Part shown: one piece after another, positions 6,962 to 55,785 of the stretch | Layout: each line of letters opens with the position of its first letter | How positions within the stretch are numbered: position 1 is the stretch's first letter | NCBI GenBank assembly: GCA_031261605.1 | Contig: JAISJI010000055.1 | Span: 12,844-76,843, forward strand | Direction: 5' to 3' | DNA length: 64,000 nucleotides | Source of the DNA: Ignavibacteria bacterium | GTDB taxonomy: Bacteria > Bacteroidota > Ignavibacteria > Kapaibacteriales > UBA2268 | Notes under the pieces: generated by a model | Told to the model about the DNA's origin: nothing | Seen by the model: only the letters and a program-made list of their open reading frames with translations | Databases searched by the model: none | Position numbers and translations under genes: made by a program

Positions 6962-8611
<1,650 letters not shown>

Positions 8612-16988: not shown

Positions 16989-19127
16989 ATGCAATTAGAA
17001 GAACAAATAATAGAAATACTTACATCGGCAACTGATTTAGTTAGATTGTTAGATATATCTAAAGCACTGCATATAAAGTCGGATACTCCGGAATATGATG
17101 AGTTAGTAGCAACGCTGAACTCGCTGGCTGAGGATGGAATAATAGAGAGACATAGTCGCAGACGCTTCTCTATATCGGAAGTGCCACAAGCAAAGCAAAC
17201 TCAAACATTTGCAAATGGGATTATTGGCATTCTACATTTAGCAGAGAATTCTGGTATAGTGGAAACCGAAGATGCGGATTATCCATCTATCGTTATACCA
17301 AATAAACTCCTTAACACTGCCCTTGATGGCGATGAAGTGAGAGTGAAATTAATTTTACAGAAGCAAAAGAAAACTCCTCGCGGAGAAATCATTGATGTTG
17401 TTAATCGCAACAATAGGACTATTGCTGGAACGGTGGAATTTGATGGCGACTTCTACTTCCTTGTGCCGGATAACGATTCGCTTGATATTGACTTCCTTAT
17501 TCCAATGAAAGACCTACTTGGTGCAAGGAATGGCGATAAAGCGATTGCGGAATTCGTTCGGTGGGATAATCCAAATAAGAATCCACAAGTTCGGATACTT
17601 GAAATTATTGGCAGAGCCGGCGAGCCGGTTGTAGAATACGAAACAATTCTTATAGAATATGGATTAGTAGAAGCATTTCCTAATGATGTATTGCACGAAA
17701 TTAAGAATGTAAAACAGCCGAACAATAAGGAAGTGCCCGATAGATTGGATTTGCGGAATGAAGCAGTTATTACCATTGACCCAGTAACAGCAAGGGATTT
17801 TGATGATGCGCTTTCGTTACAACAATTGGAGAATGGCAATTACCAAATTGGCGTTCATATTGCCGATGTCAGCTACTATGTAGGTGAAGGAACAGCACTC
17901 GACAAAGAAGCGTATAGACGTGGAAATAGCGTCTATCTTGTGGATAGAGTTGTGCCTATGCTTCCTGAGAAATTGAGCAATGAAATATGCTCTCTCAATC
18001 CGGATGTAGTGCGTTATACGTTCACTGTGCTGATGGAATTGGATGACAATTTAGAAGTGGTTGCGTATAACATTACGCCATCTATGATTAAGAGTTGTCG
18101 TAGATTTGATTACGATGAGGTGCAGGATATTATAGATACCGGTGTGGGTGATTGTGCCGAATTAGTTTTGTCGCTACATAACCTCACAAAGCGCATCAGA
18201 GAAAAACGTATCGCTACCGGAAGTATCAACTACGATACCAAAGAAATTAAATATATACTTGGAAACGATAAGTATCCGATAGATGTAGAAATACATAAGA
18301 CCACTGAATCTACGGCACTTGTAGAGGAATGTATGCTTCTTGCAAATAAAACGGTAGCGATTCATATTAAGAAAATATCCAAGCAGATGGGATTGTCTGA
18401 TACACTTCCATTTCTCTATCGTATCCACGATAAGCCAAAGGAAGAGTCGCTTGTTGCGGCATTTGATTTCATTAAATTGCTCGGCTATAATGTGAGTAAG
18501 AATAATATTACACCTGCTTCTATCAATGCGATATTGGATGAGGTTCGCTGGACACCATATAACTCCGTAGTCAATCAGGTGTTGATTCGTTCAATGGCGA
18601 AAGCCGTGTATTCCCCAATAAACATTGGTCATTACGGATTAGGTTTCTCCTATTATTCTCATTTCACTTCACCAATACGCCGTTATCCCGACCTTGTAGT
18701 GCATCGCTTGTTGCGAGAATACGCTACTAGTAAGCCCGATGCTAAGCGAATACACCAACTTACATCTATGTTGCCAAAAGTTGCGGAGCATACAACACAA
18801 ACAGAACGCACTGCAATGGAAGCAGAACGCGCCTCCAATAAATTAGCCGCAGTAATTTATGCGTCATCTATGGTTGGCGAGGTCTTTGAGGGAACGATTA
18901 CAGGAGTGGTGCAATATGGAGTGTTTGTTCTGCTTGATTCTATATATTGCGAAGGTCTATTGCACACGCGAGATATGAAAGATGACTATTATCAATTTGA
19001 TGAGAAGAGGATGCGGATAACCGGCAGACATACCAAGCAAACGTATTCGCTTGGTGGGAATGTCAGAGTTAAGATAACGAAAGTCAGTATGGACAAGCGT
19101 GTAATTGATTTAGAAATGGTTGTGTAG
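16989..19127 (+). CDS. rnr: ribonuclease R (RNB family exoribonuclease with C-terminal S1 domain)
   Basis: 712 aa; RNB catalytic region (ITIDPVTARDFDDALS, YRIHDKP, HFTSPIRRYPDLVVHRLL) and C-terminal S1-like domain. Confidence 0.9.
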   Translation: MQLEEQIIEILTSATDLVRLLDISKALHIKSDTPEYDELVATLNSLAEDGIIERHSRRRFSISEVPQAKQTQTFANGIIGILHLAENSGIVETEDADYPSIVIPNKLLNTALDGDEVRVKLILQKQKKTPRGEIIDVVNRNNRTIAGTVEFDGDFYFLVPDNDSLDIDFLIPMKDLLGARNGDKAIAEFVRWDNPNKNPQVRILEIIGRAGEPVVEYETILIEYGLVEAFPNDVLHEIKNVKQPNNKEVPDRLDLRNEAVITIDPVTARDFDDALSLQQLENGNYQIGVHIADVSYYVGEGTALDKEAYRRGNSVYLVDRVVPMLPEKLSNEICSLNPDVVRYTFTVLMELDDNLEVVAYNITPSMIKSCRRFDYDEVQDIIDTGVGDCAELVLSLHNLTKRIREKRIATGSINYDTKEIKYILGNDKYPIDVEIHKTTESTALVEECMLLANKTVAIHIKKISKQMGLSDTLPFLYRIHDKPKEESLVAAFDFIKLLGYNVSKNNITPASINAILDEVRWTPYNSVVNQVLIRSMAKAVYSPINIGHYGLGFSYYSHFTSPIRRYPDLVVHRLLREYATSKPDAKRIHQLTSMLPKVAEHTTQTERTAMEAERASNKLAAVIYASSMVGEVFEGTITGVVQYGVFVLLDSIYCEGLLHTRDMKDDYYQFDEKRMRITGRHTKQTYSLGGNVRVKITKVSMDKRVIDLEMVV

Positions 19128-19133
19128 TTTGTA

Positions 19134-19358
19134 ATGAACAGAGCGAGCGTATGGATGGGAGACAATTTAAAAGTATTGCGAGCGGTTAATGGCGATAAGA
19201 TAAGATTTGAAGAATACTATGGAAATCCGATTAATTTTGATAACTTATTACATAGAATAGATTTTGGTAATAGAATAAGTGGAGAAGGATTTATTAGTGT
19301 AGTGGTTGACGATAAGAACGCAAGGATTGCAGCAAAGATGCAAAAAATGGGGTATTAA
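19134..19358 (+). CDS. small hypothetical protein
   Basis: 74-aa ORF immediately after rnr; no recognisable family. Confidence 0.3.
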   Translation: MNRASVWMGDNLKVLRAVNGDKIRFEEYYGNPINFDNLLHRIDFGNRISGEGFISVVVDDKNARIAAKMQKMGY

Positions 19359-19686
19359 ATTTGGTAGTTTCATAAAAAACTATTATACTGTGTTTTGTTT
19401 AACTAATCATATTATGGATTATGAAAAAATTATTACCATCACCAATATTATTAATTATTGCTACTATACATGCTATTATATTCGGGCGGAGGATAGACCC
19501 ATTAACAATGGCAAATTGGTCGGAAAGACATTTGACGAGACGTGAAAGAAGGTTATTTTTCTTTTGTCGGAGGATGGTGCTCCGTCGGAGGGCGATGCAC
19601 CCAATCAGACGAATTAGTTGTTGGTGTATTTTGAGAATTCCTAATTTTAAAATATAGAAAATAAATAGATAAACTGGGGAGTATAA

Positions 19687-19718
19687 TATACTCCCCATAT
19701 TTTATTTTACAAGAATAT
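19687..19718. terminator. bidirectional-looking terminator hairpin GGGGAGTATAATATACTCCCC + T-tract
   Basis: Perfect 9-bp stem with T-rich tail; lies between convergent genes. Confidence 0.6.
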
Positions 19719-19792
19719 AACCTTGCGAAATCCACCTATTCAAATCGGCTTCAAACGTAACTCCCCAGAAGTGCTTGCTCTGAAGCGGAAAT

Positions 19793-20860
19793 TTACAATG
19801 ATGTAGGGCTATAGATTTGGTTGTAAATTAGGATTAAATTCTCTTGTTCTTTGGCAGTTGCTAATTCATCTGCAAGCGCAATTAATTTCGCAAATCTGTT
19901 AAGAGCATCGGCATAAAACTTGAAAAGCGGATTTTTAGTATACTGCAAAAGCGCCGGTAATACAAGATTAGATGTGTTACCGGACACAATAGAATTTGGG
20001 ATTTCCTTTTTTATATAGAAACTAATGGTCTCCTCAGTTGCAACACTATAATCCTTATAATGATATGCAGTTGCAATTTCTTCATAAGTCCTATTATTTA
20101 TGATATAACTATTTTCATTTGGAATAAGTAGGAATGCACTAAACGCTTCCAATGGATGCGAACGAATGTCATCATAGAGCATTGTAAGTATCTGCACCAT
20201 ATCATAACCAATACATTCCGAAATACGTTGCGGGTTGTTATCAAATTCTTTTTGTAAATCTTTATTATACTTGAGGCGTTCGAATACAGGAAAAATAAAT
20301 AGCGACAAGTTTTTCAATCTATCGTAATACTTCATTTTGAATTGGTAACTGGAATCATCAAAAGTTGGCTTGCCGGCTGGAGTGTTTGTTTGTCTAATTG
20401 TAGGAGGTTCTCTTTTGGGTAATTCATTTCCATACGGCTCAGCCGGCTTGCTATTAAGGATTTTACCATTGAGGATTTTTTTATTTTTCTCTACCATTAC
20501 CTCGAAATCGTCTTTAGACATACACAAATACTTAATGCCATTAATAATACCAATGAATGCAGGGATGCCAGTCCAGCAGAATAACAAATACGGAGAACCT
20601 TCATCACAAAGATAATACTTATGAATGCCGAACGAGCCAAATAGAAAAGCCAGCACCGCTGCTTTCGTTTTTGACTTATTGTTATCAATATTATTCATAG
20701 AATATTTATCTAATGCTTCAGCAATTACAGCAAAGCACATTATTGCAACAATTATGAATATAATGATTCCAATAACAGATGGGGTATCGCCATAATATAT
20801 AGAAAAAATCATATATGACGTATAACAAATGAAGCATACTGCAACCAAAAAGTTTTTCAT
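19793..20860 (-). CDS. TM2-domain membrane protein
   Basis: Central region LAFLFGSFGIHKYYLCDEGSPYLLFCWTGIPAFIGIINGI resembles the TM2 domain; N-terminal TM helices. Confidence 0.5.
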   Translation of the reverse strand: MKNFLVAVCFICYTSYMIFSIYYGDTPSVIGIIIFIIVAIMCFAVIAEALDKYSMNNIDNNKSKTKAAVLAFLFGSFGIHKYYLCDEGSPYLLFCWTGIPAFIGIINGIKYLCMSKDDFEVMVEKNKKILNGKILNSKPAEPYGNELPKREPPTIRQTNTPAGKPTFDDSSYQFKMKYYDRLKNLSLFIFPVFERLKYNKDLQKEFDNNPQRISECIGYDMVQILTMLYDDIRSHPLEAFSAFLLIPNENSYIINNRTYEEIATAYHYKDYSVATEETISFYIKKEIPNSIVSGNTSNLVLPALLQYTKNPLFKFYADALNRFAKLIALADELATAKEQENLILIYNQIYSPTSL

Positions 20861-46379: not shown

Positions 46380-46409
46380 ATTTGTGCTATTGTAGATAAA
46401 CTATAGAAT

Positions 46410-46676
46410 ATGGAGAATGATATTATAACAAAGGAATGGCTTAATGCTAATTTTGTTTATGATGAGAATCTTAAAATGTGGAGAGCATCATCAGATGTTG
46501 ATGGGAAATGGTATATTAAGAGATATTCATATGAACCTGACACATTTGCATTATATCTTCGTTTATTTGATGCTCCTCACTTACGTGATTTATATGCCAT
46601 TATTTATAAGGGAACTTCTATACAAGAACTTCTTAAGCACCTATCTGGTTTGGATGATGGTTCAAAATCTTCGTGA
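46410..46676 (+). CDS. small hypothetical protein (AT-rich islet)
   Basis: 88-aa ORF with no recognisable family; first gene of the AT-rich segment upstream of the CRISPR array. Confidence 0.35.
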   Translation: MENDIITKEWLNANFVYDENLKMWRASSDVDGKWYIKRYSYEPDTFALYLRLFDAPHLRDLYAIIYKGTSIQELLKHLSGLDDGSKSS

Positions 46677-46721
46677 ACTATAACTTTTAGAATTTCTTTT
46701 CGTAGTTGCATTTACTTTTAT

Positions 46722-46750
46722 GTTGTAAATTGGTCTCAATTTTGTTATTT
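46722..46750 (+). repeat. solitary partial CRISPR repeat (29-nt 5' half GTTGTAAATTGGTCTCAATTTTGTTATTT, identical to the array repeat)
   Basis: Exact match to positions 1-29 of the 46-nt repeat, about 2.3 kb upstream of the first canonical repeat. Confidence 0.8.
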
Positions 46751-46859
46751 ATACTATTAGTAGTAATGGTATTATCTAGTGCTACACTGCAAGCCACTAT
46801 CACTATTTAACATTTTACATATAATGGTGTTCCTTTAAGAAGATTTGTTTGTTTTGATA

Positions 46860-47084
46860 GATGAATTAGATTTAGATGATTCAACCTCTTATACTGCTAT
46901 TACATCGTGGTCTTCAAAATCAGCAAAAGGCTATATAACACTATATCTGAATGAAAAAATGCAAATTTGTGTCAGCTATACAGATTATAATGGCGATGTT
47001 GTTTATGATAAACAACATCCGGACGAGGATGTATATGAAGACGGAGGAGATTATGATGGATATGGAGAAGATTATGATGAATAA
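46860..47084 (+). CDS. small highly acidic hypothetical protein (C-terminus DEDVYEDGGDYDGYGEDYDE)
   Basis: ORF 46845..47084 with a likelier start at the ATG at 46860; strongly acidic, Tyr/Asp-rich tail. Confidence 0.4.
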   Translation, partial: DELDLDDSTSYTAITSWSSKSAKGYITLYLNEKMQICVSYTDYNGDVVYDKQHPDEDVYEDGGDYDGYGEDYDE

Positions 47085-47092
47085 TGTAAATA

Positions 47093-47800
47093 ATGCTTCA
47101 CAAGACAGAACTAAATATGAAGATAATTGATAAAAACAAAGATTATTATGATTACTTACAAGGCATAAATGGAATAGACCCTCAAGTTACTTTTGATAGG
47201 AGAGGTTCATTTATGCCTTCTATAAACTGGTTAAATAGTTTCATTATACCTTATCAAGAACCTGATAAATATCTTTTTCCTAACATAAACAAAAGCAAAA
47301 TAGTATTAGAAGTAGGGTTTCAACACTACATATTAGAGATAGAAAGAATGAAAGATGAAACTTGCAAATATAAATTGCATTCTCAGAGTAGAGATGAACA
47401 TTGTGGAGCATCTGTTATAGGAATATATCGCTTATCTTATTATTCAAGAGATGATAGGTGGAAAGTAACTAAAGAAACTCATATTCCGACTATTTTAGTA
47501 TCTGATAGTGAAACTAAAAGTAATATAGAATATGATGTTGTTATGACCCCTTGTTTCAAATGTTTATCTTCTGATACAGAAAATGTTAGACAATCTCCAT
47601 ATCTAAACCCAATATTAAAAGATACATTCATTCCTTCTATTATAGATGCACAAACTATCTGGAACAACATATATGAATATATTAGTTTTACTAATGAACC
47701 TTTAATAACAGATAGTATGACAGATAAAGAAAAATTAGAATCGAAAGGGTTTGATAACAAAAGTTCATTTAGACATCCGGTAAAATACGTTATGATTTGA
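47093..47800 (+). CDS. hypothetical protein; 3' end overlaps a degenerate CRISPR repeat
   Basis: 235-aa ORF; the last codons (..YVMI*) are encoded by repeat variant GTTATGATTTGA... Confidence 0.4.
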   Translation: MLHKTELNMKIIDKNKDYYDYLQGINGIDPQVTFDRRGSFMPSINWLNSFIIPYQEPDKYLFPNINKSKIVLEVGFQHYILEIERMKDETCKYKLHSQSRDEHCGASVIGIYRLSYYSRDDRWKVTKETHIPTILVSDSETKSNIEYDVVMTPCFKCLSSDTENVRQSPYLNPILKDTFIPSIIDAQTIWNNIYEYISFTNEPLITDSMTDKEKLESKGFDNKSSFRHPVKYVMI

Positions 47801-47833
47801 TTACATTTTAGTATATTTGTGGTGATACACAAC
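47789..47833 (+). repeat. degenerate CRISPR repeat (GTTATGATTTGATTACATTTTAGTATATTTGTGGTGATACACAAC)
   Basis: Shares termini GTT.TG...ACAAC and the central TTTGT.GTGGAT/A.ACAAC block with the canonical repeat; nearly identical to the variant at 48783. Confidence 0.75.
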
Positions 47834-47919
47834 CAAACTATTGCTTGATATTTCTACGAGATACAAGGAATTACAGAGTTGAACAAGGCGAAGGCATATT
47901 ATAATTTTATATAACAATT

Positions 47920-48477
47920 ATGAAAACTTACAATGATTATAAAGATTTGTTATTACAAATCAATTCATATCTAAATGAATCAGTTGATTTTAGTTTAAAT
48001 TTTAAGAGAAAATTAACTGATGATTTGTTAAAATTAAGCTATGTATTAGATGAATTTTATAATAATATTTTAACAGATAAAAATGGAAATATACATAATA
48101 GAAATACTGAAAGTTTTTATGTACATATTCATAAACCTGGAAAACATTTAGCAAAAATAAGAATCAGTGAATATGCACCTTTGTCATTCAATAAAATTGT
48201 AAATGATATTGTAAAAAATAAATATCAATATTATTATATCATAAATTTAACAGGGACAGAATGGAATAGTGTATTTAGTAAATTTTTTTTAAGACAATGT
48301 GTACTTCAAGCTGATGTATCAAATTTAACCCAAGTTGATTATGTATCCAAATCTATCATAAGTAATGATGTAAACAAACTGGTTATTAATATTATGGATA
48401 CTATATTGACATATTTACAAACCAACAACATAATTATATCAGGTTTAGAAATAGATTGGAACATATCAAAAATATAA
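47920..48477 (+). CDS. hypothetical protein (AT-rich, Asn/Tyr/Lys-rich)
   Basis: 185-aa ORF between two degenerate repeats; no family recognised. Confidence 0.4.
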   Translation: MKTYNDYKDLLLQINSYLNESVDFSLNFKRKLTDDLLKLSYVLDEFYNNILTDKNGNIHNRNTESFYVHIHKPGKHLAKIRISEYAPLSFNKIVNDIVKNKYQYYYIINLTGTEWNSVFSKFFLRQCVLQADVSNLTQVDYVSKSIISNDVNKLVINIMDTILTYLQTNNIIISGLEIDWNISKI

Positions 48478-48482
48478 ATATT

Positions 48483-48794
48483 ATGAAAAATTATCAAACA
48501 TACAAAATACTATCACTTATGGACAAAGTGCCTGTAGTAGATATGGCTACCTATATAGGTAAAATTTCACCATCTCTGTATGGTGAAGGTAAGGTTAAAC
48601 TCAAACAGAGAGATTGGTTCTACAATTTATCTACTGATGGAGGTGGTTATGTATATTACCATCATAAACAAGCATTATATGAGATAGTGGATAGAGACCT
48701 AATACTTTGTAAGAATATTGATTATAATTTGATACATCTGGTGATTGACAACTTCAGCAACTCAGTTCCCAATATATGGCACGTTATGATTTGA
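48483..48794 (+). CDS. hypothetical protein; 3' end overlaps a degenerate CRISPR repeat
   Basis: ORF 48456..48794, probable start at the ATG at 48483; ends ..HVMI* inside repeat variant GTTATGATTTGA, mirroring the gene at 47093. Confidence 0.35.
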   Translation: MKNYQTYKILSLMDKVPVVDMATYIGKISPSLYGEGKVKLKQRDWFYNLSTDGGGYVYYHHKQALYEIVDRDLILCKNIDYNLIHLVIDNFSNSVPNIWHVMI

Positions 48795-50042
48795 TTACAT
48801 TTTCGTTATATTTGTGGTGATACACAACAACTACTACTGCATTAACTACTGCTAATACGTTGTGATTTGCGTTCTTTTTCGTTATATTTGTGGTGATACA
48901 CAACACACGAAAAAAGCACGTCATTTGTCTTGAAGTTGTGATTTGCGTTCTTTTTCGTTATATTTGTAGTGGATTACAACTCCAAGCAGCGTTAGTATTG
49001 AATCTCTTCAGTTGTAAATTGGTCTCAATTTTGTTATTTTTGTAGTGGATTACAACTCTGTTGCCTCTCTGGGTCTTAATGCACGGTTGTAAATTGGTCT
49101 CAATTTTGTTATTTTTGTAGTGGATTACAACCTTGTTCTTTCCATACTTTATTTCAATGAAGTTGTAAATTGGTCTCAATTTTGTTATTTTTGTAGTGGA
49201 TTACAACTAATTATTATCTAACGCGTCGCACGGAATGGTTGTAAATTGGTCTCAATTTTGTTATTTTTGTAGTGGATTACAACATACCGATCAAATGAAT
49301 CGTTCGGAACGATGTTGTAAATTGGTCTCAATTTTGTTATTTTTGTAGTGGATTACAACTTCATTAACAATAAATTTACCACTATTTTGTTGTAAATTGG
49401 TCTCAATTTTGTTATTTTTGTAGTGGATTACAACAGTTGGTGGCTTTGTATCAGTGCCTGCTGTGTTGTAAATTGGTCTCAATTTTGTTATTTTTGTAGT
49501 GGATTACAACTTTTTAATATAATTTTCAATATATTCACCTGTTGTAAATTGGTCTCAATTTTGTTATTTTTGTAGTGGATTACAACCGTCTAAATTTGGG
49601 ATACCAACAAACGATTGTTGTAAATTGGTCTCAATTTTGTTATTTTTGTAGTGGATTACAACTATTGATGGCAACACAACGAGCAAAGAGTTGTTGTAAA
49701 TTGGTCTCAATTTTGTTATTTTTGTAGTGGATTACAACAATATGTTCGCTCATATCGTATTCTATATAGTTGTAAATTGGTCTCAATTTTGTTATTTTTG
49801 TAGTGGATTACAACTATAAGTATAGCGTATGTCTTGGCTCTGCCGTTGTAAATTGGTCTCAATTTTGTTATTTTTGTAGTGGATTACAACTTTCCTGGAT
49901 TGACTAATATTTATTATTTAGTTGTAAATTGGTCTCAATTTTGTTATTTTTGTAGTGGATTACAACGATTCTGAAGTGGATATTTATAGCAGCGGCGTTG
50001 TAAATTGGTCTCAATTTTGTTATTTTTGTAGTGGATTACAAC
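48783..50042 (+). CRISPR. CRISPR array: 17 repeats of 46 nt (14 canonical GTTGTAAATTGGTCTCAATTTTGTTATTTTTGTAGTGGATTACAAC from 49011, plus 3 progressively degenerate repeats at 48783, 48859, 48935), 16 spacers of 29-30 nt
   Basis: Repeat starts read directly: 48783, 48859, 48935, 49011, 49086, 49162, 49238, 49314, 49389, 49465, 49541, 49617, 49693, 49769, 49845, 49921, 49997. The repeat has the 7-bp terminal inverted repeat GTTGTAA / TTACAAC. Confidence 0.95.
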
Positions 50043-50094
50043 ATTCCCACTGCAACACTCGCAATAACAGTAACTTATACTAAACACTACGAAT

Positions 50095-50145
50095 GAAAAA
50101 AGAGCGAGCTTTTGAAATAGAAAGCCCGCTCTTTTGTTTTTTTGC
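50095..50145. terminator. bidirectional terminator-like hairpin (AAAAAA AGAGCGAGC...GCCCGCTCT TTTGTTTTTTT) between array and tracrRNA
   Basis: Stem flanked by an A-tract and a T-tract, so it can act on either strand. Confidence 0.55.
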
Positions 50146-50248
50146 AATCTTGCAGATAAAAAAATATCTGATAACAATATATTCAAATTATTTTTGTATA
50201 TTGCGTTCTCTTGTATTGCGATTTAAGTAATCTAAGTATAATCCGTTT

Positions 50249-50345
50249 AAAAAACAGAAACCCAACATAAATGCTGGGCTGCCGTGATGTTTTCACAACG
50301 GAATAATCCTTATTGTAAATTGTTCTCAATTTTGAATTACAAATA
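50249..50345 (-). ncRNA. predicted tracrRNA (anti-repeat + hairpins + intrinsic terminator), transcribed on the minus strand toward the array
   Basis: Plus-strand 50312-50342 ATTGTAAATTGTTCTCAATTTTGAATTACAA is a diverged repeat copy. Its minus-strand transcript UUGUAAUUCAAAAUUGAGAACAAUUUACAAU pairs with repeat positions 1-23 (about 22 bp, one mismatch). It is followed by stem-loops (CCGUUGUGAAAACAUCACGG; CAGCCCAGCAUUUAUGUUGGGUUUCUG) and UUUUUU. Confidence 0.6.
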
Positions 50346-50366
50346 TAACTATATTTTTGTTAACTA
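50331..50366 (+). promoter_or_regulatory. putative Bacteroidetes-type promoter for cas9 (-33 TTTG at 50331, -7 TATTTTTG at 50352-50359)
   Basis: TAnnTTTG-type -7 element 28 nt upstream of the cas9 ATG; -33/-7 spacing of 17 nt is slightly shorter than the 19-21 consensus. Confidence 0.35.
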
Positions 50367-50387
50367 CCAAATATTATCAAAATTATT

Positions 50388-53300
50388 ATGAAAAAAGTTT
50401 TAGGTTTAGATTTAGGAACGACTTCTATTGGCTGGGCATTGGTAAATAGAGCCGAAACAAAAGAAGAACGCTCAAATATTATTAAATTAGGTGTTAGAGT
50501 TGTGCCATTGTCTGTTGATGAAAATCTGAACTATGGCAAAGGGAAACCTATAACTACCAATGCTGGCAGACGGTTAAAGCGTGGAATGCGCCGAAATCTC
50601 CAGAGGTATAAGTTGCGTAGAGAAAATCTAATAGAAATTCTTAAAGACAATAAGTTCATTACAGATGATACTTTTCTCTCGGAAGAAGGTAAAGACACTA
50701 CATTTGAGACATATACACTGCGGGCAAAGGCAGTAACCGATGAGATTGCACTAGACGAATTGGCAAGAGTATTGCTGATGATTAATAAGAAACGTGGCTA
50801 TCGGAGTGGTAGAAAGGTAACAAACGATGAAGATGGCCAATCTGTTGATAGTATGGAGGTCGCTAAGAATTTATATCAAGATAATCTAACCCCAGGTGAA
50901 TTCAGTTTAAATCTGCTAAAGCAAGGTAAAAAAGAACTACCGGATTATTATCGCACTGATTTAAAAGCTGAAATAGATAAAATATGGGAATACCAACGAG
51001 AATATCACTCAGAAATACTTACAGACGAACTTAAAATACAACTTGAAGGAAAAGGACAAAAGGCAGCTGCACAACTATTCTTTGCTAAGTATGGATTTAA
51101 TACCGCAGATGTGAAAGGCAGTAAAGAAGCACAAAAACTGAAAAAATATGAATTGCGAGTGGATGCCTTGACAAAGGAGTTGGATAAAGAGGAACTTGCA
51201 CTTGTAATTTCAAATATTTGTGGTGAAATTAATAGTTCGAGTGGATACTTGGCAGCGATAAGCGATAGAAGTAAGGAACTGGAATTTAATAACCAAACTG
51301 TTGGTCAGTATTTTATGGAGCAATTAGCAAAAAATTCACATTTCAGTGTCAAAAATAAGATCTTCTACAGACAAGATTATATTGACGAATTTGAAAAGAT
51401 ATGGTCGACGCAAAGTAAATTCCATACAGAACTAACTAACGAATTGAAATCAAAAATTAGAGATGTGATTATTTTTTATCAACGAAGATTGAAGAGTCAA
51501 AAAGGGCTGATTAGTTTCTGCGAGTTCGAAAGAAGAGAAGTTGAAATAGAGATTGACGGCAAAATAAAGGAGAAGGTAGTTGGCTCAAGAGTCGTGCCTA
51601 AATCTTCTCCTTTATTTCAAGAATTTAAAATATGGCAAATCCTTAATAATATTCAGGTTACAACACATAAGCAGACGGGCGAATATTTTGAATTAGAGCA
51701 AGACCAAAAGGAATACTTAGCACAGGAATTGAGTATTAGAACAAAATTATCTGCCACAGAAGCATTAAAGCTACTATACCCCAAAGAAGACAAAGATTAT
51801 GATTTGAATTACAATATATTGGAAGGAAATAAGACGCAAGCAGAGTTATTTGATGTATACAAAAAAATTATAGTGGAAAGTAATAGATTAAGCGACCACG
51901 ATTTTTCAAAAATGAATGCAAAGCAAACAATAGAGGCGGTAGCAGAAATATTTGACGACTTGGGATACAGCACGGATATTTTGGAATTTGATTCTTCTTA
52001 TGAAGGAGATATTCGCCAGCAGCCGATGTATAAATTGTGGCATATATTATATTCGTATGAGGGTGATAGTGGAAATGAAAAATTAGAAAAGAAATTAACC
52101 GACTTATATGGATTTGCGCAAGAAACTGCTAAACGTATTGCAAATATTTCTTTTTCGTTGGATTACGGAAACTTAAGCGCGAAAGCAATTAAAAAGATAC
52201 TGCCATTTCTAAAAAGTGGCTCACGCTATGATGAATCTGTAGAAAAAGGAGGATATGATAGACATTCTAAGAGTTCGCTGACAAAAGAAGAAATTGATAA
52301 TAAGATATTGAAAGATAAATTAAAAAACCTTCCTAAAAATTATTTACGTAATCCAGTTGTAGAGAAGATTTTAAATCAAATGGTAAATGTAGTAAATGCT
52401 ATTATTGATACTTACGGCAAACCAGATGAAATAAGCGTTGAACTTGCGCGAGAATTGAAAATGAATGCAAAAGAGAGAGAAAATAAAACGAAAGCAATAT
52501 CCAAATCTAACAAAAACAACGAAGCAATAAAAAAACGTTTGAAGGATGAATTTAGTATCAGTAATGTAAGTCATAATGATATATTGCGTTATAAGTTATA
52601 TCAGGAACTGAAAGATAATGCCTATAAGACACTTTATTCAAATCAATATATCCCGCAGGAAAAATTATTTAGCAAAGAAATTGACAGAGACCATATTATT
52701 CCGCAATCCCGTTTATTTGATGATTCATTCTCCAATAAAATATTGGAATATAAAAGCGTTAATATTGAAAAAGGAAATGAAACCGCTTATGATTATGTTC
52801 TAAATAAATATGGAAAAGAGAAAATTGATGATTATTTATCAAAAATAAATAAATTGTATGCCAACAAATCCATATCCAAGACGAAATACAATAAATTGAA
52901 AATGAAAGGCATAGACATCCCAGATGATTTTATTGAAAGGGACATAAAAGATACTCAATATATTGCAAAAACAGCCAAAAATATGTTAGAGGAAATTGTA
53001 AATGTTGTCATTTCCACTTCAGGGGAAATAACAAGCAAACTACGTGAGGATTGGGGATTAGTAGATATAATGAAGGAATTGAATTGGGATAAATACAGCA
53101 AACTTGGATTAACAGAAGTGATAGAAAATGAAGAAGGACATAAAATAAGCAAAATTAAAGATTGGAATAAGCGTAACGACCATCGCCATCACGCAATGGA
53201 TGCTCTAACCGTTGCATTTACTACGCGTAGCCATATCCAGCACCTCAATACATTGAAATCTAATTCTGAATCTGACTTAATTTATAAGGACAAGAGAAAT

Positions 53301-54494
53301 AAAAAGAAGTTCTCGCCACCTATCCCGGAAAAAGATTTTAGAGCCGAAGCAAAAGAGCATTTAGAAAACACCTTAATTTCAATTAAAGCAAAAAATAAAG
53401 TAGCAACCATAAATACTAATAAAACTAAAACAAATACAAAAAATAATTTCAAAGAAACTAAACAACTCACCCCACGCGGACAACTGCATAACGAGACAAT
53501 ATATGGAAGTATTCAACAAAATATTGTGGTTTTCGAAAAAATTGGTAGTTCATTTGATGCAGATAAAATAAATAAAGTAACAAAACCTGCATATAAAGAG
53601 GCGTTATTAGAACGTCTACATAAGTTTAATGATGACCCAAAACTTGCTTTTACTGTGAAAAATAGTTTATCAAAAAATCCGATATACTTAAATGATTTGC
53701 AAACTAATAAGGTACCAGAAAAAGTAAAAATAGAAAAAATAGAAACAATTTATACTATTCGTAAAGATATTAAGCCAGATTTAAACGTAGAAAAAGTAGT
53801 CGATTCTAAAATCCGTAAGTTATTGGAAAAGCGTATCAAAGAATATAATAACGACCCTAAAAAAGCATTCGAAAATTTAGATGAAAATCCTATTTGGCTT
53901 AATGAGAAAAAATGCATATCTATCAAGCGTGTTACCATACGTGGCGTTAGTAATACTGAGCCACTGCATAGCAAAAAAGATAAAGATGGCAAATTATTAT
54001 TAGATGGAAGCGGACAAAATATACCTATTGATTTTGTTCAAACCGGTAACAATCATCACGTGGCTATGTACAAGGATCAAGATGGAGATCTGCAAGAAAA
54101 TGTGGTCTCTTTTTACGAGGCAGTTTTGCGTAAAAATGATAAATTGCCAATAATGGATAAGAATTTTAATAGCGAACTTGGTTGGCAGTTTATGTTTTCT
54201 ATGGAGCAGAACGAATATTTTATTTTTCCAAATGAACAAACAAGATTCAATCCCAATGAAATTGATTTATTAGAACCAAATAATTATCATCTAATTAGCC
54301 CAAATTTATATAGAGTGCAAAAACTTGCTACAAAAAATTATATGTTTAGACATCATTTAGAAACAGATGTTCAGGAAAGAAAAGAACTTAAAGGTATTTC
54401 ATATAAATTGATACAAAGTACAAAATACTTAGAAGACATTGTAAAGGTTCGTACGAATCACCTTGGACAAATTATATCTGTTGGAGAATACTAA
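50388..54494 (+). CDS. cas9: type II CRISPR-associated endonuclease Cas9 (1368 aa)
   Basis: RuvC-I MKKVLGLDLGTTSIGWAL; RuvC-II ISVELARELKMNAKER; HNH DRDHIIPQS...NKILEYKSVNIEKGN; RuvC-III HHAMDALTVAF; Arg-rich bridge helix GRRLKRGMRRNLQRYKLRR. Confidence 0.95.
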   Translation: MKKVLGLDLGTTSIGWALVNRAETKEERSNIIKLGVRVVPLSVDENLNYGKGKPITTNAGRRLKRGMRRNLQRYKLRRENLIEILKDNKFITDDTFLSEEGKDTTFETYTLRAKAVTDEIALDELARVLLMINKKRGYRSGRKVTNDEDGQSVDSMEVAKNLYQDNLTPGEFSLNLLKQGKKELPDYYRTDLKAEIDKIWEYQREYHSEILTDELKIQLEGKGQKAAAQLFFAKYGFNTADVKGSKEAQKLKKYELRVDALTKELDKEELALVISNICGEINSSSGYLAAISDRSKELEFNNQTVGQYFMEQLAKNSHFSVKNKIFYRQDYIDEFEKIWSTQSKFHTELTNELKSKIRDVIIFYQRRLKSQKGLISFCEFERREVEIEIDGKIKEKVVGSRVVPKSSPLFQEFKIWQILNNIQVTTHKQTGEYFELEQDQKEYLAQELSIRTKLSATEALKLLYPKEDKDYDLNYNILEGNKTQAELFDVYKKIIVESNRLSDHDFSKMNAKQTIEAVAEIFDDLGYSTDILEFDSSYEGDIRQQPMYKLWHILYSYEGDSGNEKLEKKLTDLYGFAQETAKRIANISFSLDYGNLSAKAIKKILPFLKSGSRYDESVEKGGYDRHSKSSLTKEEIDNKILKDKLKNLPKNYLRNPVVEKILNQMVNVVNAIIDTYGKPDEISVELARELKMNAKERENKTKAISKSNKNNEAIKKRLKDEFSISNVSHNDILRYKLYQELKDNAYKTLYSNQYIPQEKLFSKEIDRDHIIPQSRLFDDSFSNKILEYKSVNIEKGNETAYDYVLNKYGKEKIDDYLSKINKLYANKSISKTKYNKLKMKGIDIPDDFIERDIKDTQYIAKTAKNMLEEIVNVVISTSGEITSKLREDWGLVDIMKELNWDKYSKLGLTEVIENEEGHKISKIKDWNKRNDHRHHAMDALTVAFTTRSHIQHLNTLKSNSESDLIYKDKRNKKKFSPPIPEKDFRAEAKEHLENTLISIKAKNKVATINTNKTKTNTKNNFKETKQLTPRGQLHNETIYGSIQQNIVVFEKIGSSFDADKINKVTKPAYKEALLERLHKFNDDPKLAFTVKNSLSKNPIYLNDLQTNKVPEKVKIEKIETIYTIRKDIKPDLNVEKVVDSKIRKLLEKRIKEYNNDPKKAFENLDENPIWLNEKKCISIKRVTIRGVSNTEPLHSKKDKDGKLLLDGSGQNIPIDFVQTGNNHHVAMYKDQDGDLQENVVSFYEAVLRKNDKLPIMDKNFNSELGWQFMFSMEQNEYFIFPNEQTRFNPNEIDLLEPNNYHLISPNLYRVQKLATKNYMFRHHLETDVQERKELKGISYKLIQSTKYLEDIVKVRTNHLGQIISVGEY

Positions 54495-55394
54495 ATGCTC
54501 AAACAAACCCTCTACTTCGGCAACCCCGCTTATTTATCTGTGAAAAATAAACAACTCGTTGTTAAATTGATAGATAGCGATGAGATAATCACTCGCCCAA
54601 TCGAAGACATCGGTATCGTTATTTTAGATAATTGGCAAATCACTATAACCCAAAACGTTATCGCATCTCTCCTCGAAAATAACGCCGCTATTATACATTG
54701 CAATAATGCACATCTCCCTGTCGGTCTTGTCCTTAATTTAGATGGTAATACCTTGCAATCCCAACGCTTTAAGACACAAATAAATGCTTCCGAACCACTA
54801 AAAAAACAACTCTGGCAACAAATAATTAAAGCAAAAATAGAAAATCAATCGCTGCTCCTAAAAAGCCAAAATAAAGATATTAAACGACTCCAAGTTATGC
54901 TCCGCAATCTTAAAACAGGCGATACAGATAATTATGAAGCACAAGCGGCAGCGTATTATTGGAAAAATATTTTTAGCAACTATCTCCCTAATTTTAAGCG
55001 AGATAGAGAAGGTGACCAGCCGAATAATTTGCTAAATTATGGTTATGCAATTTTGCGTGCAGCAGTTGCACGAGCACTTGTTGGCTCTGGTTTATTGCCA
55101 ACTCTGGGCATTTTTCACCGCAACCAATATAACGCATATTGTTTAGCAGATGATATTATGGAACCATATCGTCCATTTGTGGATAGAGCCGTTTTTAATT
55201 ACTTAAAAGAAAATAAATATTGCGATTTCTTGGATACAGAAGCGAAAAAATATTTATTCCAAGTAATGCAAGACGATGTGATGTTTGGAAAAGAGCGAAG
55301 CCCTTTATTTGTTGGACTTACAACGACAACTGCTTCACTTGTAGCGTGCTTTGAAGGCAAAAAGCGAAAAATAAAATATCCAACAATCTGCTAA
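54495..55394 (+). CDS. cas1: CRISPR-associated endonuclease Cas1 (type II)
   Basis: 299 aa; NLLNYGYAILRAAVARALVGSGLLPTLGIFHRNQYNAYCLADDIMEPYRPFVD; start overlaps the cas9 stop (TAAATG). Confidence 0.95.
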   Translation: MLKQTLYFGNPAYLSVKNKQLVVKLIDSDEIITRPIEDIGIVILDNWQITITQNVIASLLENNAAIIHCNNAHLPVGLVLNLDGNTLQSQRFKTQINASEPLKKQLWQQIIKAKIENQSLLLKSQNKDIKRLQVMLRNLKTGDTDNYEAQAAAYYWKNIFSNYLPNFKRDREGDQPNNLLNYGYAILRAAVARALVGSGLLPTLGIFHRNQYNAYCLADDIMEPYRPFVDRAVFNYLKENKYCDFLDTEAKKYLFQVMQDDVMFGKERSPLFVGLTTTTASLVACFEGKKRKIKYPTIC

Positions 55395-55443
55395 ACTAAT
55401 TCATTAATTATAGTATATATCCGATAATTTTAGAATATTATCT

Positions 55444-55785
55444 ATGTATATTATGCAACGACTTAGTGAGTATAGAATTATGTGGGTTATGGTTTTATTT
55501 GACTTGCCGACAGAAACCAAAGTTGACCGCAAGCGATACACACAATTCCGCAAAGAATTACTGAAAGATGGATTTGATATGTTTCAGTTTTCTATTTATG
55601 TCCGACATTGTGCCAGCAGAGAAAATGCACAAGTCCATATAAAACGTGTCAAAGATAAAATGCCACAATTCGGACAAATCGGACTAATGACTATTACCGA
55701 CAAGCAATTCGGGCAGATAGAAATTTTCTGTAATCGCAAAGTTGTCGAACCATCTCACGTTCAGATGCAATTAGATATGTTTTGA
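55444..55785 (+). CDS. cas2: CRISPR-associated endoribonuclease Cas2
   Basis: About 100-113 aa; VLFDLPTETKVDRKRYTQFRKELLKDGFDMFQFSIYVRHC is a typical Cas2 core; exact start uncertain (several in-frame ATGs). Confidence 0.9.
   Translation: MYIMQRLSEYRIMWVMVLFDLPTETKVDRKRYTQFRKELLKDGFDMFQFSIYVRHCASRENAQVHIKRVKDKMPQFGQIGLMTITDKQFGQIEIFCNRKVVEPSHVQMQLDMF

Follow-up and report, generated by a model that had tools for sequence, protein, structure and literature searches.

We analysed a 64,000-nucleotide window of contig JAISJI010000055.1, which belongs to a metagenome-assembled genome (MAG) labelled 'Ignavibacteria bacterium' (locus tags LBO69_0659x-066xx, contig of 76,843 bp), and focused on a CRISPR array whose left end is interrupted by gene-bearing DNA. 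The array is located upstream of cas9 (50388-54494, + strand; TIGR01865 match, 522 bits), which is followed on the + strand by cas1 (54495-55394) and cas2 (55453-55785), both recognised by Pfam family matches. Neither csn2 nor cas4 is present at the locus and no array lies downstream of cas2; with this set of genes, the locus is therefore of type II-C. The intervals between the array and cas9 and between cas2 and the next gene contain no further open reading frame (ORF) of at least 50 amino acids (aa). The active canonical array (48981-50042) consists of one spacer followed by 14 perfect copies of a 46-nt repeat, GTTGTAAATTGGTCTCAATTTTGTTATTTTTGTAGTGGATTACAAC, at 49011-50042, with 13 spacers of 29-30 nt and a period of 75-76 nt. 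An element at 50249-50336 is read as a putative trans-activating CRISPR RNA (tracrRNA) on the - strand, in which an anti-repeat (50334-50312) would precede a terminator hairpin (50280-50259) and a T-run. The anti-repeat at 50312-50334 matches the repeat at 21 of 23 positions (2 mismatches), and the duplex predicted between the two has an energy of -28.8 kcal/mol. Since this tracrRNA would be read from the - strand, the CRISPR RNAs (crRNAs) would come from the + strand, which sets the crRNA sense of the array as +. Cas9 relatives carry an equivalent tracrRNA element about 100 nt upstream of cas9; we compared the loci of 80 Cas9 relatives (54-62% identity), out of at least 592 loci of the clade in GTDB, and nearly all of them were labelled Bacteroidota, mostly Bacteroidales.

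To the left of the perfect repeats lie four variant repeats and one half-repeat. A preliminary description of this DNA had placed repeat relics at 48935, 48859, 48783 and 47789 and an exact 29-nt half-repeat at 46722; all are present at these positions and stand far above chance, as such patterns essentially never arose in dinucleotide-preserving shuffles of the window. When scored by gapped identity, the variants match the canonical repeat at 39/46 (48935), 36/46 (48859), 34/46 (48783) and 33/45 (47789) positions. The first three are 76 nt apart with 30-nt spacers, which is the regular array spacing, and the elements at 47789 and 46722 are irregularly spaced, with gaps of 949 and 1,038 nt. 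The stepwise fall in identity along the first three repeats is thus real, but its reading as a decay stretching over 2 kb was not supported: the pattern is one of mosaic blocks, with a distinct type of variant repeat (var), a chimeric repeat and, on the far side, a canonical half-repeat.

Counts of repeat halves revealed how these blocks are arranged. In the window there are 15 copies of the canonical 5' 23-mer and 15 of the canonical 3' 18-mer, of which 14 each belong to the intact repeats. The fifteenth 5' 23-mer belongs, with 0 mismatches, to the orphan half-repeat (46722-46750, +), an exact 29-nt copy of canonical positions 1-29, while the fifteenth 3' 18-mer (48963-48980, positions 29-46) is found inside the chimeric repeat (48935-48980, +). 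With one orphan of each half, a single canonical repeat has therefore been split at position 29/30 by 2,212 bp (46751-48962), the orphan half-repeat forming the left junction and the chimeric repeat the right one. The chimera equals the neighbouring variant repeat, var2, over positions 1-33 and the canonical repeat over positions 29-46; in other words, positions 1-28 are var, 34-46 canonical and 29-33 shared, and it differs from var2 in the 3' 13 nt only. The breakpoints of the orphan half and of the chimera agree (position 29 versus 28-34). The earlier proposal that recombination between repeats had been involved is borne out by both the split canonical repeat and the chimeric one.

The split site falls in the T-run of a TAnnTTTG motif, which is lost from the orphan half-repeat and which stands at position 24/25, in the crRNA orientation, in every full repeat of both types (49011-50042 and 47789-48980). 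We take TAnnTTTG to be the Bacteroidetes -7 promoter consensus, and TATATTTG precedes the putative tracrRNA (50347-50340, - strand); the motif suggests that, like other II-C systems, this one may have promoters inside its repeats. The last repeat is immediately followed, at 50093-50140, by a GC-rich hairpin between A-runs and T-runs (AAAAAAGAGCGAGC...GCCCGCTCTTTTGTTTTTTT), which may be a bidirectional terminator separating the array from the tracrRNA and was not called by a simple terminator scan.

The variant repeats, whose type is represented by GTTGTGATTTGCGTTCTTTTTCGTTATATTTGTGGTGATACACAAC, are closely related to one another. The differences between var2 (48859-48904, +) and var3 (48783-48828, +) are confined to positions 4-17, the 5' part of var3 being degenerate relative to var2, and var3 and the 45-nt var4 (47789-47833, +) are separated by one substitution and one deleted base (44/45 identical). 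A var-specific 23-mer occurs twice and a var-specific 20-mer three times in the window. The only Rfam match was a weak one of var4 to CRISPR-DR49 on the + strand (28.5 bits versus a 41-bit threshold). The 5' end of the var repeats (GTTGTGATTTGC...) is the usual repeat 5' end, in crRNA sense, of the Cas9 relatives. The duplexes predicted with the resident tracrRNA amounted to -17.5 kcal/mol for the hybrid repeat, -15.4 for var2, -7.5 for var3 and -8.5 for var4. Thus, at -15.4 to -7.5 versus -28.8 kcal/mol for the canonical repeat, the var repeats would not fit the resident Cas9-tracrRNA pair, and var units are unlikely to yield working guides here. In view of this poor pairing, the var repeats are attributed to another II-C system and are joined to the resident array via the chimeric repeat. 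A gradual divergence of one repeat lineage was considered and discarded, since it would require 11 simultaneous changes in the tracrRNA-pairing part.

From left to right, the block at 46751-48962 contains a long insert A, var4, a long insert B, var3, a spacer, var2, a second spacer and var positions 1-28. Its right part corresponds to two and two-thirds var units with 30-nt spacers, the segment at 48829-48934 (+) comprising var2 with a 30-nt spacer on either side. Insert A (46751-47788, +; 1,038 bp, GC content 0.29) and insert B (47834-48782, +; 949 bp, GC 0.255) are stretches of phage-type DNA, each with a same-strand gene pair and closed by a var-type terminal repeat copy. The GC content was 0.279 for the block, 0.387 for the 46 kb upstream and 0.331 for the cas genes.

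The entire CRISPR-cas island (46380-55785) has a GC content of 0.28-0.33, with flanks at 0.38-0.39. The nearest Cas9 relatives are all from Bacteroidota, whereas the MAG carries an Ignavibacteria label; together with the low GC of the island, this points either to an island acquired by horizontal transfer or to a fault in binning or labelling. One history in which such a transfer would be central is an exchange of arrays. In this case, a var-type II-C array would have been the original resident, a module of cas9, tracrRNA and canonical array would have arrived horizontally and recombined inside a repeat, and the var units and long inserts would be the trailer of the old array itself. The chimeric repeat at 48935 is the crossover product expected from such an event, the var 5' end is typical of the repeats of Cas9 relatives, and the lower GC of the island and the Bacteroidales affinity of its Cas9, despite the Ignavibacteria label, would also follow. 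We nevertheless consider the exchange unlikely, given that it leaves unexplained both the exact 29-nt canonical half-repeat to the left of the var units and the matching breakpoints of that half-repeat and the chimeric repeat, and given that neither a var-type tracrRNA nor a second cas set is found within the window.

A Logan contig (run SRR14710919) is 100% identical to positions 46721-48888 and ends where its 30-mers become common with other repeats, as expected from a k=31 graph. The interior of the block has therefore been independently assembled. This result bears on the possibility that repeat k-mers in common had led the assembler to link the array with a contig of a phage or plasmid. 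The source is indeed a MAG contig, and at small k the joins are ambiguous, since the k=31 Logan contig breaks off at 46721 and 48888, exactly at repeat k-mers; however, the shared stretches measure only 29-46 nt and would be spanned by ordinary reads, the right side is chained via unique spacers and the unique chimeric repeat, and the Logan contig confirms the interior with both var copies included. Such a chimera is highly improbable.

Five ORFs had been reported between the relics (hereafter O1-O5). All five exist on the + strand and measure 79-235 aa, with GC decreasing along the codon positions (GC1>GC2>GC3) throughout, although only four of them, O2-O5, lie between the relics. Among 1000 shuffled versions of the region, the longest ORF had a mean length of 46 aa and a maximum of 109 aa, and none contained five ORFs of 79 aa or more; the longest - strand ATG ORF of the actual region is 63 aa. 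The ORFs are genuine coding sequences, and the suggestion that they were spurious is refuted by these coding statistics and by the homologs described below. O1-O5 showed no Pfam match above threshold and no PADLOC, NCBIfam or PDB sequence match. The first of them, O1 (46410-46676, 88 aa), is an orphan located between an SPFH/YqiK gene and the array end; it is annotated as LBO69_06600, forms a singleton cluster and had no homologs in the phage set (tblastn) or PDB. As O1 sits to the left of the orphan half-repeat, outside the relics, it may be a gene of the flank rather than part of the insertion.

Insert A carries O2 and O3. O3 (47117-47800, 227 aa; 235 aa from an alternative start at 47093) matches phrog_4243 (E=3e-13) and so has a recognisable family, contrary to the statement that the five ORFs lack recognisable domains. 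We found 96 homologs of about 200-230 aa, whose neighbourhoods are phage-typical, with numerous short genes on one strand and with genes for DNA methylases, a sigma factor, DHFR and NUDIX. In IMG/VR, the family is present at 72 loci, mostly on contigs of 100-670 kb, and the uncharacterised proteins matched by tblastn and structure (BFVD) come from Acidovorax phage ACP17, Cellulophaga phages and uncultured phages. Whether homologs were phage-borne had been proposed as a check; the O3 family is mainly so. Neither the 2.6-kb segment nor the array matched any of 50,697 phage records by BLASTN. The C-terminus of the family reads ...SFRHP(V/I)K or ...SFRHRK, and O3 keeps it before continuing with the repeat-encoded YVMI and stop codon. 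O3 is thus a full-length, intact member of a phage protein family; since its natural end abuts the repeat, the phage DNA ends within one codon of the natural stop. The structure model of O3 (mean predicted local distance difference test score, pLDDT, of 70) gave no convincing function from its structural matches, and the phage loci of the family contain neither repeats nor homologs of O1, O2, O4 or O5. With regard to the resident array, the spacer at 49587-49616 (CGTCTAAATTTGGGATACCAACAAACGATT) matches two IMG/VR contigs of 180 kb and 66 kb (L135 and L136, 7581-7600) at 19 of 20 nt of its 3' end. Both contigs encode an O3-family protein, and the matched stretch is part of a gene with a conserved ...YGIPTKD... 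sequence, which hints weakly at a targeting of O3-carrying kinds of phage by the array. The companion of O3, O2 (46845-47084, 79 aa), starts with TTG, has no ATG near its start and a pI of 4.05, and is called as a gene in the Logan and JGI assemblies. The searches made for O2, against family libraries and PDB, gave no match; it may be 5'-truncated or a small DNA-mimic-like protein.

Insert B carries O4 and O5. O4 (47920-48477, 185 aa) belongs to a rare protein family with four remote homologs of 194-202 aa (E 1e-7 to 3e-4), and the two that were looked up lie in phage-like contexts among small unannotated genes, one of them adjoining RtcB and a TnpB-like gene. Its structure model (pLDDT 73) yielded no convincing functional assignment either; the structure prediction that had been proposed was carried out for O3 and O4. 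O5 (48483-48794, 103 aa, or 91 aa from an alternative start) is an orphan with no match by tblastn against phages and none in PDB, and in a search of 5.8 billion proteins O4 and O5 retrieved only themselves. The last codons and stop of O5 are inside the repeat at 48783. As had been noticed, two ORFs terminate in this manner inside near-identical repeat variants: those at 47093-47800 and 48483-48794 read through GTTATGATTTGA of the repeats at 47789 and 48783 and end in ...KYVMI* and ...WHVMI*, respectively. A duplicated gene-plus-repeat module had been put forward on this basis. The two repeats are near-duplicates, as proposed, but the two genes are unrelated, and only the repeat and possibly about 13 nt of its context are duplicated. 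This context similarity extends about 13 nt beyond the var4 and var3 repeats (9/12 matches, p ~0.01 by our estimate). If real, it would mean that insert B is flanked by a duplicated repeat and spacer start, which would fit the homologous integration of a circle carrying a repeat-spacer unit and not a repeat duplication by Cas1-Cas2.

Three of the four insert boundaries lie in intergenic DNA or at a gene end. We infer that the four genes O2-O5 are passengers, oriented like the crRNA transcription. O4-O5 face the promoter-like TAnnTTTG motif of var4, immediately upstream, and may be transcribed from the array. A role for them in anti-defence would be a guess, in which the genes would have been kept as anti-CRISPR (Acr) genes, for superinfection exclusion or as a CRISPR-guarded toxin, expressed from the repeat promoters; this idea is compatible with any of the origins considered here. 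In its favour, all the ORFs are intact and run in the crRNA direction, genes are spared at those three boundaries, O2 is small and very acidic, and the var repeats retain TAnnTTTG just upstream of O4-O5. We regard such a function as decidedly improbable, because O1-O5 had no PDB sequence match below E=0.1, hence none to a solved Acr or any other solved structure, and none to defence or NCBI family models, and because the Pfam scan of the ORFs found no helix-turn-helix (HTH, aca-like) partner gene. Moreover, there is no pseudo-spacer partly matching a promoter, as a CreA-like or mini-array logic would demand, conservation cannot speak for the orphans O2 and O5, and the long inserts of relatives described below are truncated gene fragments antisense to the crRNA. 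Self-targeting spacers and regulatory pseudo-spacers were discarded in general, since the spacers and repeat-adjacent 30-mers match the window over at most 15 nt, the chance level.

In order to place the block in the context of related arrays, we examined the 30 relatives whose array far end is not cut by the contig. In 3 of these 30, long gaps between the last repeats contain fragments of mobile-element genes. L031 has a 630-640 bp gap with an LPD3 domain (18494-19135). In L081, a 610 bp gap (17057-17666) contains a Phage_tail_S / tail-completion gene cut by the terminal repeat, and a further gap of 427 bp (17713-18139) is followed by a partial repeat. L086 has a 630 bp gap (7388-8017) with a CdiA_C-like C-terminal fragment whose 5' end is cut by a repeat. 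The sources of these inserts were not found. Counting the window, six long inserts in four arrays (two of them in L081) all occupy the oldest positions. Trailer-end inserts would thus recur in this II-C clade, and the window, where they comprise whole genes and foreign repeats, would be their most extreme example. The age of the array ends is assigned by analogy: the left end of the window array is cas-distal, as is the degenerate terminal repeat of relatives, so that it is probably the old (trailer) end, as had been assumed.

Two further features of the related loci were observed. In three Bacteroidales relatives, trailer-end repeats are split at one shared position by a homologous hairpin-rich insert of about 62-70 nt (L064 17071-17182; L079 18063-18174; L058 13522-13640, 13669-13784 and 13817-13933), which contains, for example, ...AGAAGATTGGCGGCGCCTCGGCAATCCAAGCAAGCTTGATTGCCCTCATCTTGCACAATCTT... 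and is unmatched in Rfam; a small structured RNA is one possibility, a miniature element that targets terminal repeats another. The position of the array also varies: in the window it lies upstream of tracrRNA and cas9, in the cas9 sense, whereas most of the relatives in which an array was detected have it downstream of cas2 and antisense, with L036, whose array is upstream, as an exception. Relative to the array, the cas block appears to be inverted.

Another conceivable origin is an aberrant adaptation, in which Cas1-Cas2, while the array was still young, would have taken up untrimmed, kb-sized fragments of infecting phages as giant spacers and duplicated the repeat. Inserts A and B stop exactly at the start of a repeat, and var4 and var3 are near-identical, as after repeat duplication. 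The O3 relatives occur in large, probably lytic phages, and the fragments of about 0.6 kb in L081 and L086, which cut through genes, are bounded by full-length repeats. On the other hand, the outer junction lies inside a repeat (29/30) and not at a repeat border, the similarity of the var4 and var3 contexts exceeds the repeat, and the confinement of all six inserts to the oldest positions is unexpected for leader-end acquisitions occurring at random times. Type II Cas1-Cas2 is not known to us to integrate spacers of kb length, and a literature search on long spacers showed nothing of evident relevance among its top 15 titles. Altogether, giant spacers are a quite unlikely origin. It is a similarly doubtful, speculative idea that the II-C arrays of this clade possess an unrecognised capture route at the terminal repeat, by which phage or plasmid DNA would come to lie between repeats in pieces of 0.6-1 kb, some of them with whole genes. 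If such a route existed, promoter-bearing repeats could express the captured genes, and the old array end would be a small gene-capture platform instead of an inert memory.

The explanation that we favour, with a probability of about 0.5, is that foreign DNA was inserted, in nested fashion, into the type II-C array at its oldest repeat, by recombination through repeats, and was later trimmed; the segment would then not be a single array in slow decay. A mobile element or phage would already have borne repeat-spacer units from another II-C host. It would have recombined with the array inside the terminal repeat, at the T-run of TAnnTTTG, where both repeat types share a GTTAT.TTTGT stretch, and a crossover in this stretch would generate the right-hand chimeric repeat. 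Most of the element would afterwards have been lost by a deletion that began in the reciprocal hybrid repeat on the left, leaving accessory genes behind. The var units adjoin the chimeric junction, which would fit a carry-over from the previous host. Accordingly with what had been suspected, foreign mobile DNA is present in the array, although the capture need not be called ancient: the block still has 28% GC versus 39%, and O3 is full length.

Several observations weigh against this origin by repeat recombination. The block contains no integrase or other recombinase (no such domain was found in O1-O5 with Pfam and other family models) and no clear attachment (att) core. The sequence common to both junctions is 'TTT' at most, and the number of T residues does not fit a clean conservative recombination; the integrase and att core could have been removed by the later deletion. 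O3 relatives are mostly in very large phages, presumably virulent and non-integrating. The left junction, where canonical positions 1-29 are followed by unrelated sequence, would require the extra deletion step, and gene sparing at three of the four boundaries goes beyond a simple remnant model, suggesting that selection or a preference for certain sites may have played a part. The structure is read from a contig assembled from metagenomic data. Neither the source element, nor a genome with var repeats, nor a close relative of the organism was found, so that the order of events is inferred from one sequence. Specifically, exact patterns of the var repeat (3' 22-/24-mers and both 5' halves) and of the canonical repeat had no match in viral and metagenome collections, and no donor array or phage with var repeats was recovered. 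The flank and cas proteins formed only singleton or two-member clusters, with members on the same contig or its Logan duplicate; there is therefore no orthologous locus in which the same genes could be compared in the absence of relics.

CRISPR arrays are usually read as ordered 30-nt memories with an eroding old end. At this locus, the old end would instead have been a target of recombination. The findings suggest that CRISPR arrays can take up mobile DNA by recombination at their repeats and that repeat-spacer units can move between hosts of different repeat types. They would also extend to a Bacteroidota-type II-C system the insertion of phage or mobile DNA into repeats, known experimentally for one type II-A streptococcal phage. 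The four small phage-type proteins inside the array are reasonable candidates for Cas9-inhibition screening. Trailers of this kind would be misinterpreted by array finders and when viruses are linked to hosts through spacers.

When compared to known systems, the block is not any of the following: a known Acr locus, an RNA anti-CRISPR (Racr), a regulatory mini-array, an insertion sequence (IS) or an integron-like cassette array. Trailer erosion also leaves non-consensus repeats at the oldest, cas-distal end; in ordinary erosion, however, point-mutated repeats keep their normal spacing, whereas here the differences are block-wise, the spacing reaches about 1 kb and intact foreign genes are present. 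IS elements in arrays likewise break the array with mobile DNA and leave partial repeats on both sides, as in L028 from Massilibacteroides vaginae, where an IS66-family element with transposase and accessory ORFs (17935-20536) lies mid-array and splits a repeat into positions 1-23 and 13-46. In contrast, the window block has no transposase domain, its ends are not inverted repeats by eye and at most 1 nt is duplicated as target site; the signatures of a transposon or integron were looked for and are not present in the block. Racr RNAs (PMC10651486) and cr-like mini-arrays (bioRxiv 10.1101/2023.03.03.530964) resemble the locus in having isolated CRISPR-like repeats beside phage genes. Unlike Racr, the var repeats are poor mimics of the host repeat and are located in a host array and not in a virus, and unlike cr-like mini-arrays or a CreTA-type guarded toxin, the window offers no partial target for a regulatory guide.

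The nearest likeness is to prophage PhiAP1.1 of Streptococcus pyogenes, described by Varble et al., which integrates into type II-A repeats, is found in natural genomes mostly in the terminal repeat and can, by aberrant excision, carry repeat-spacer units into the array of a new host (bioRxiv 10.1101/2020.10.09.333658). As with PhiAP1.1, a phage-derived gene (O3) lies between two parts of one canonical repeat, the repeat concerned is terminal, and a partial repeat is kept on one side. Repeat-spacer units of a former host may have been brought along to give a mixed array. The window differs in belonging to a type II-C locus in a Bacteroidota/Ignavibacteriota-type genome, in retaining just 2.2 kb with no integrase or clear att core, in carrying repeats of a type other than that of the host and in having an extra repeat copy between the two gene pairs. 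The block thus behaves as the remnant of a repeat-targeting integrative element and is not classified as one because the integrase and att core are missing.

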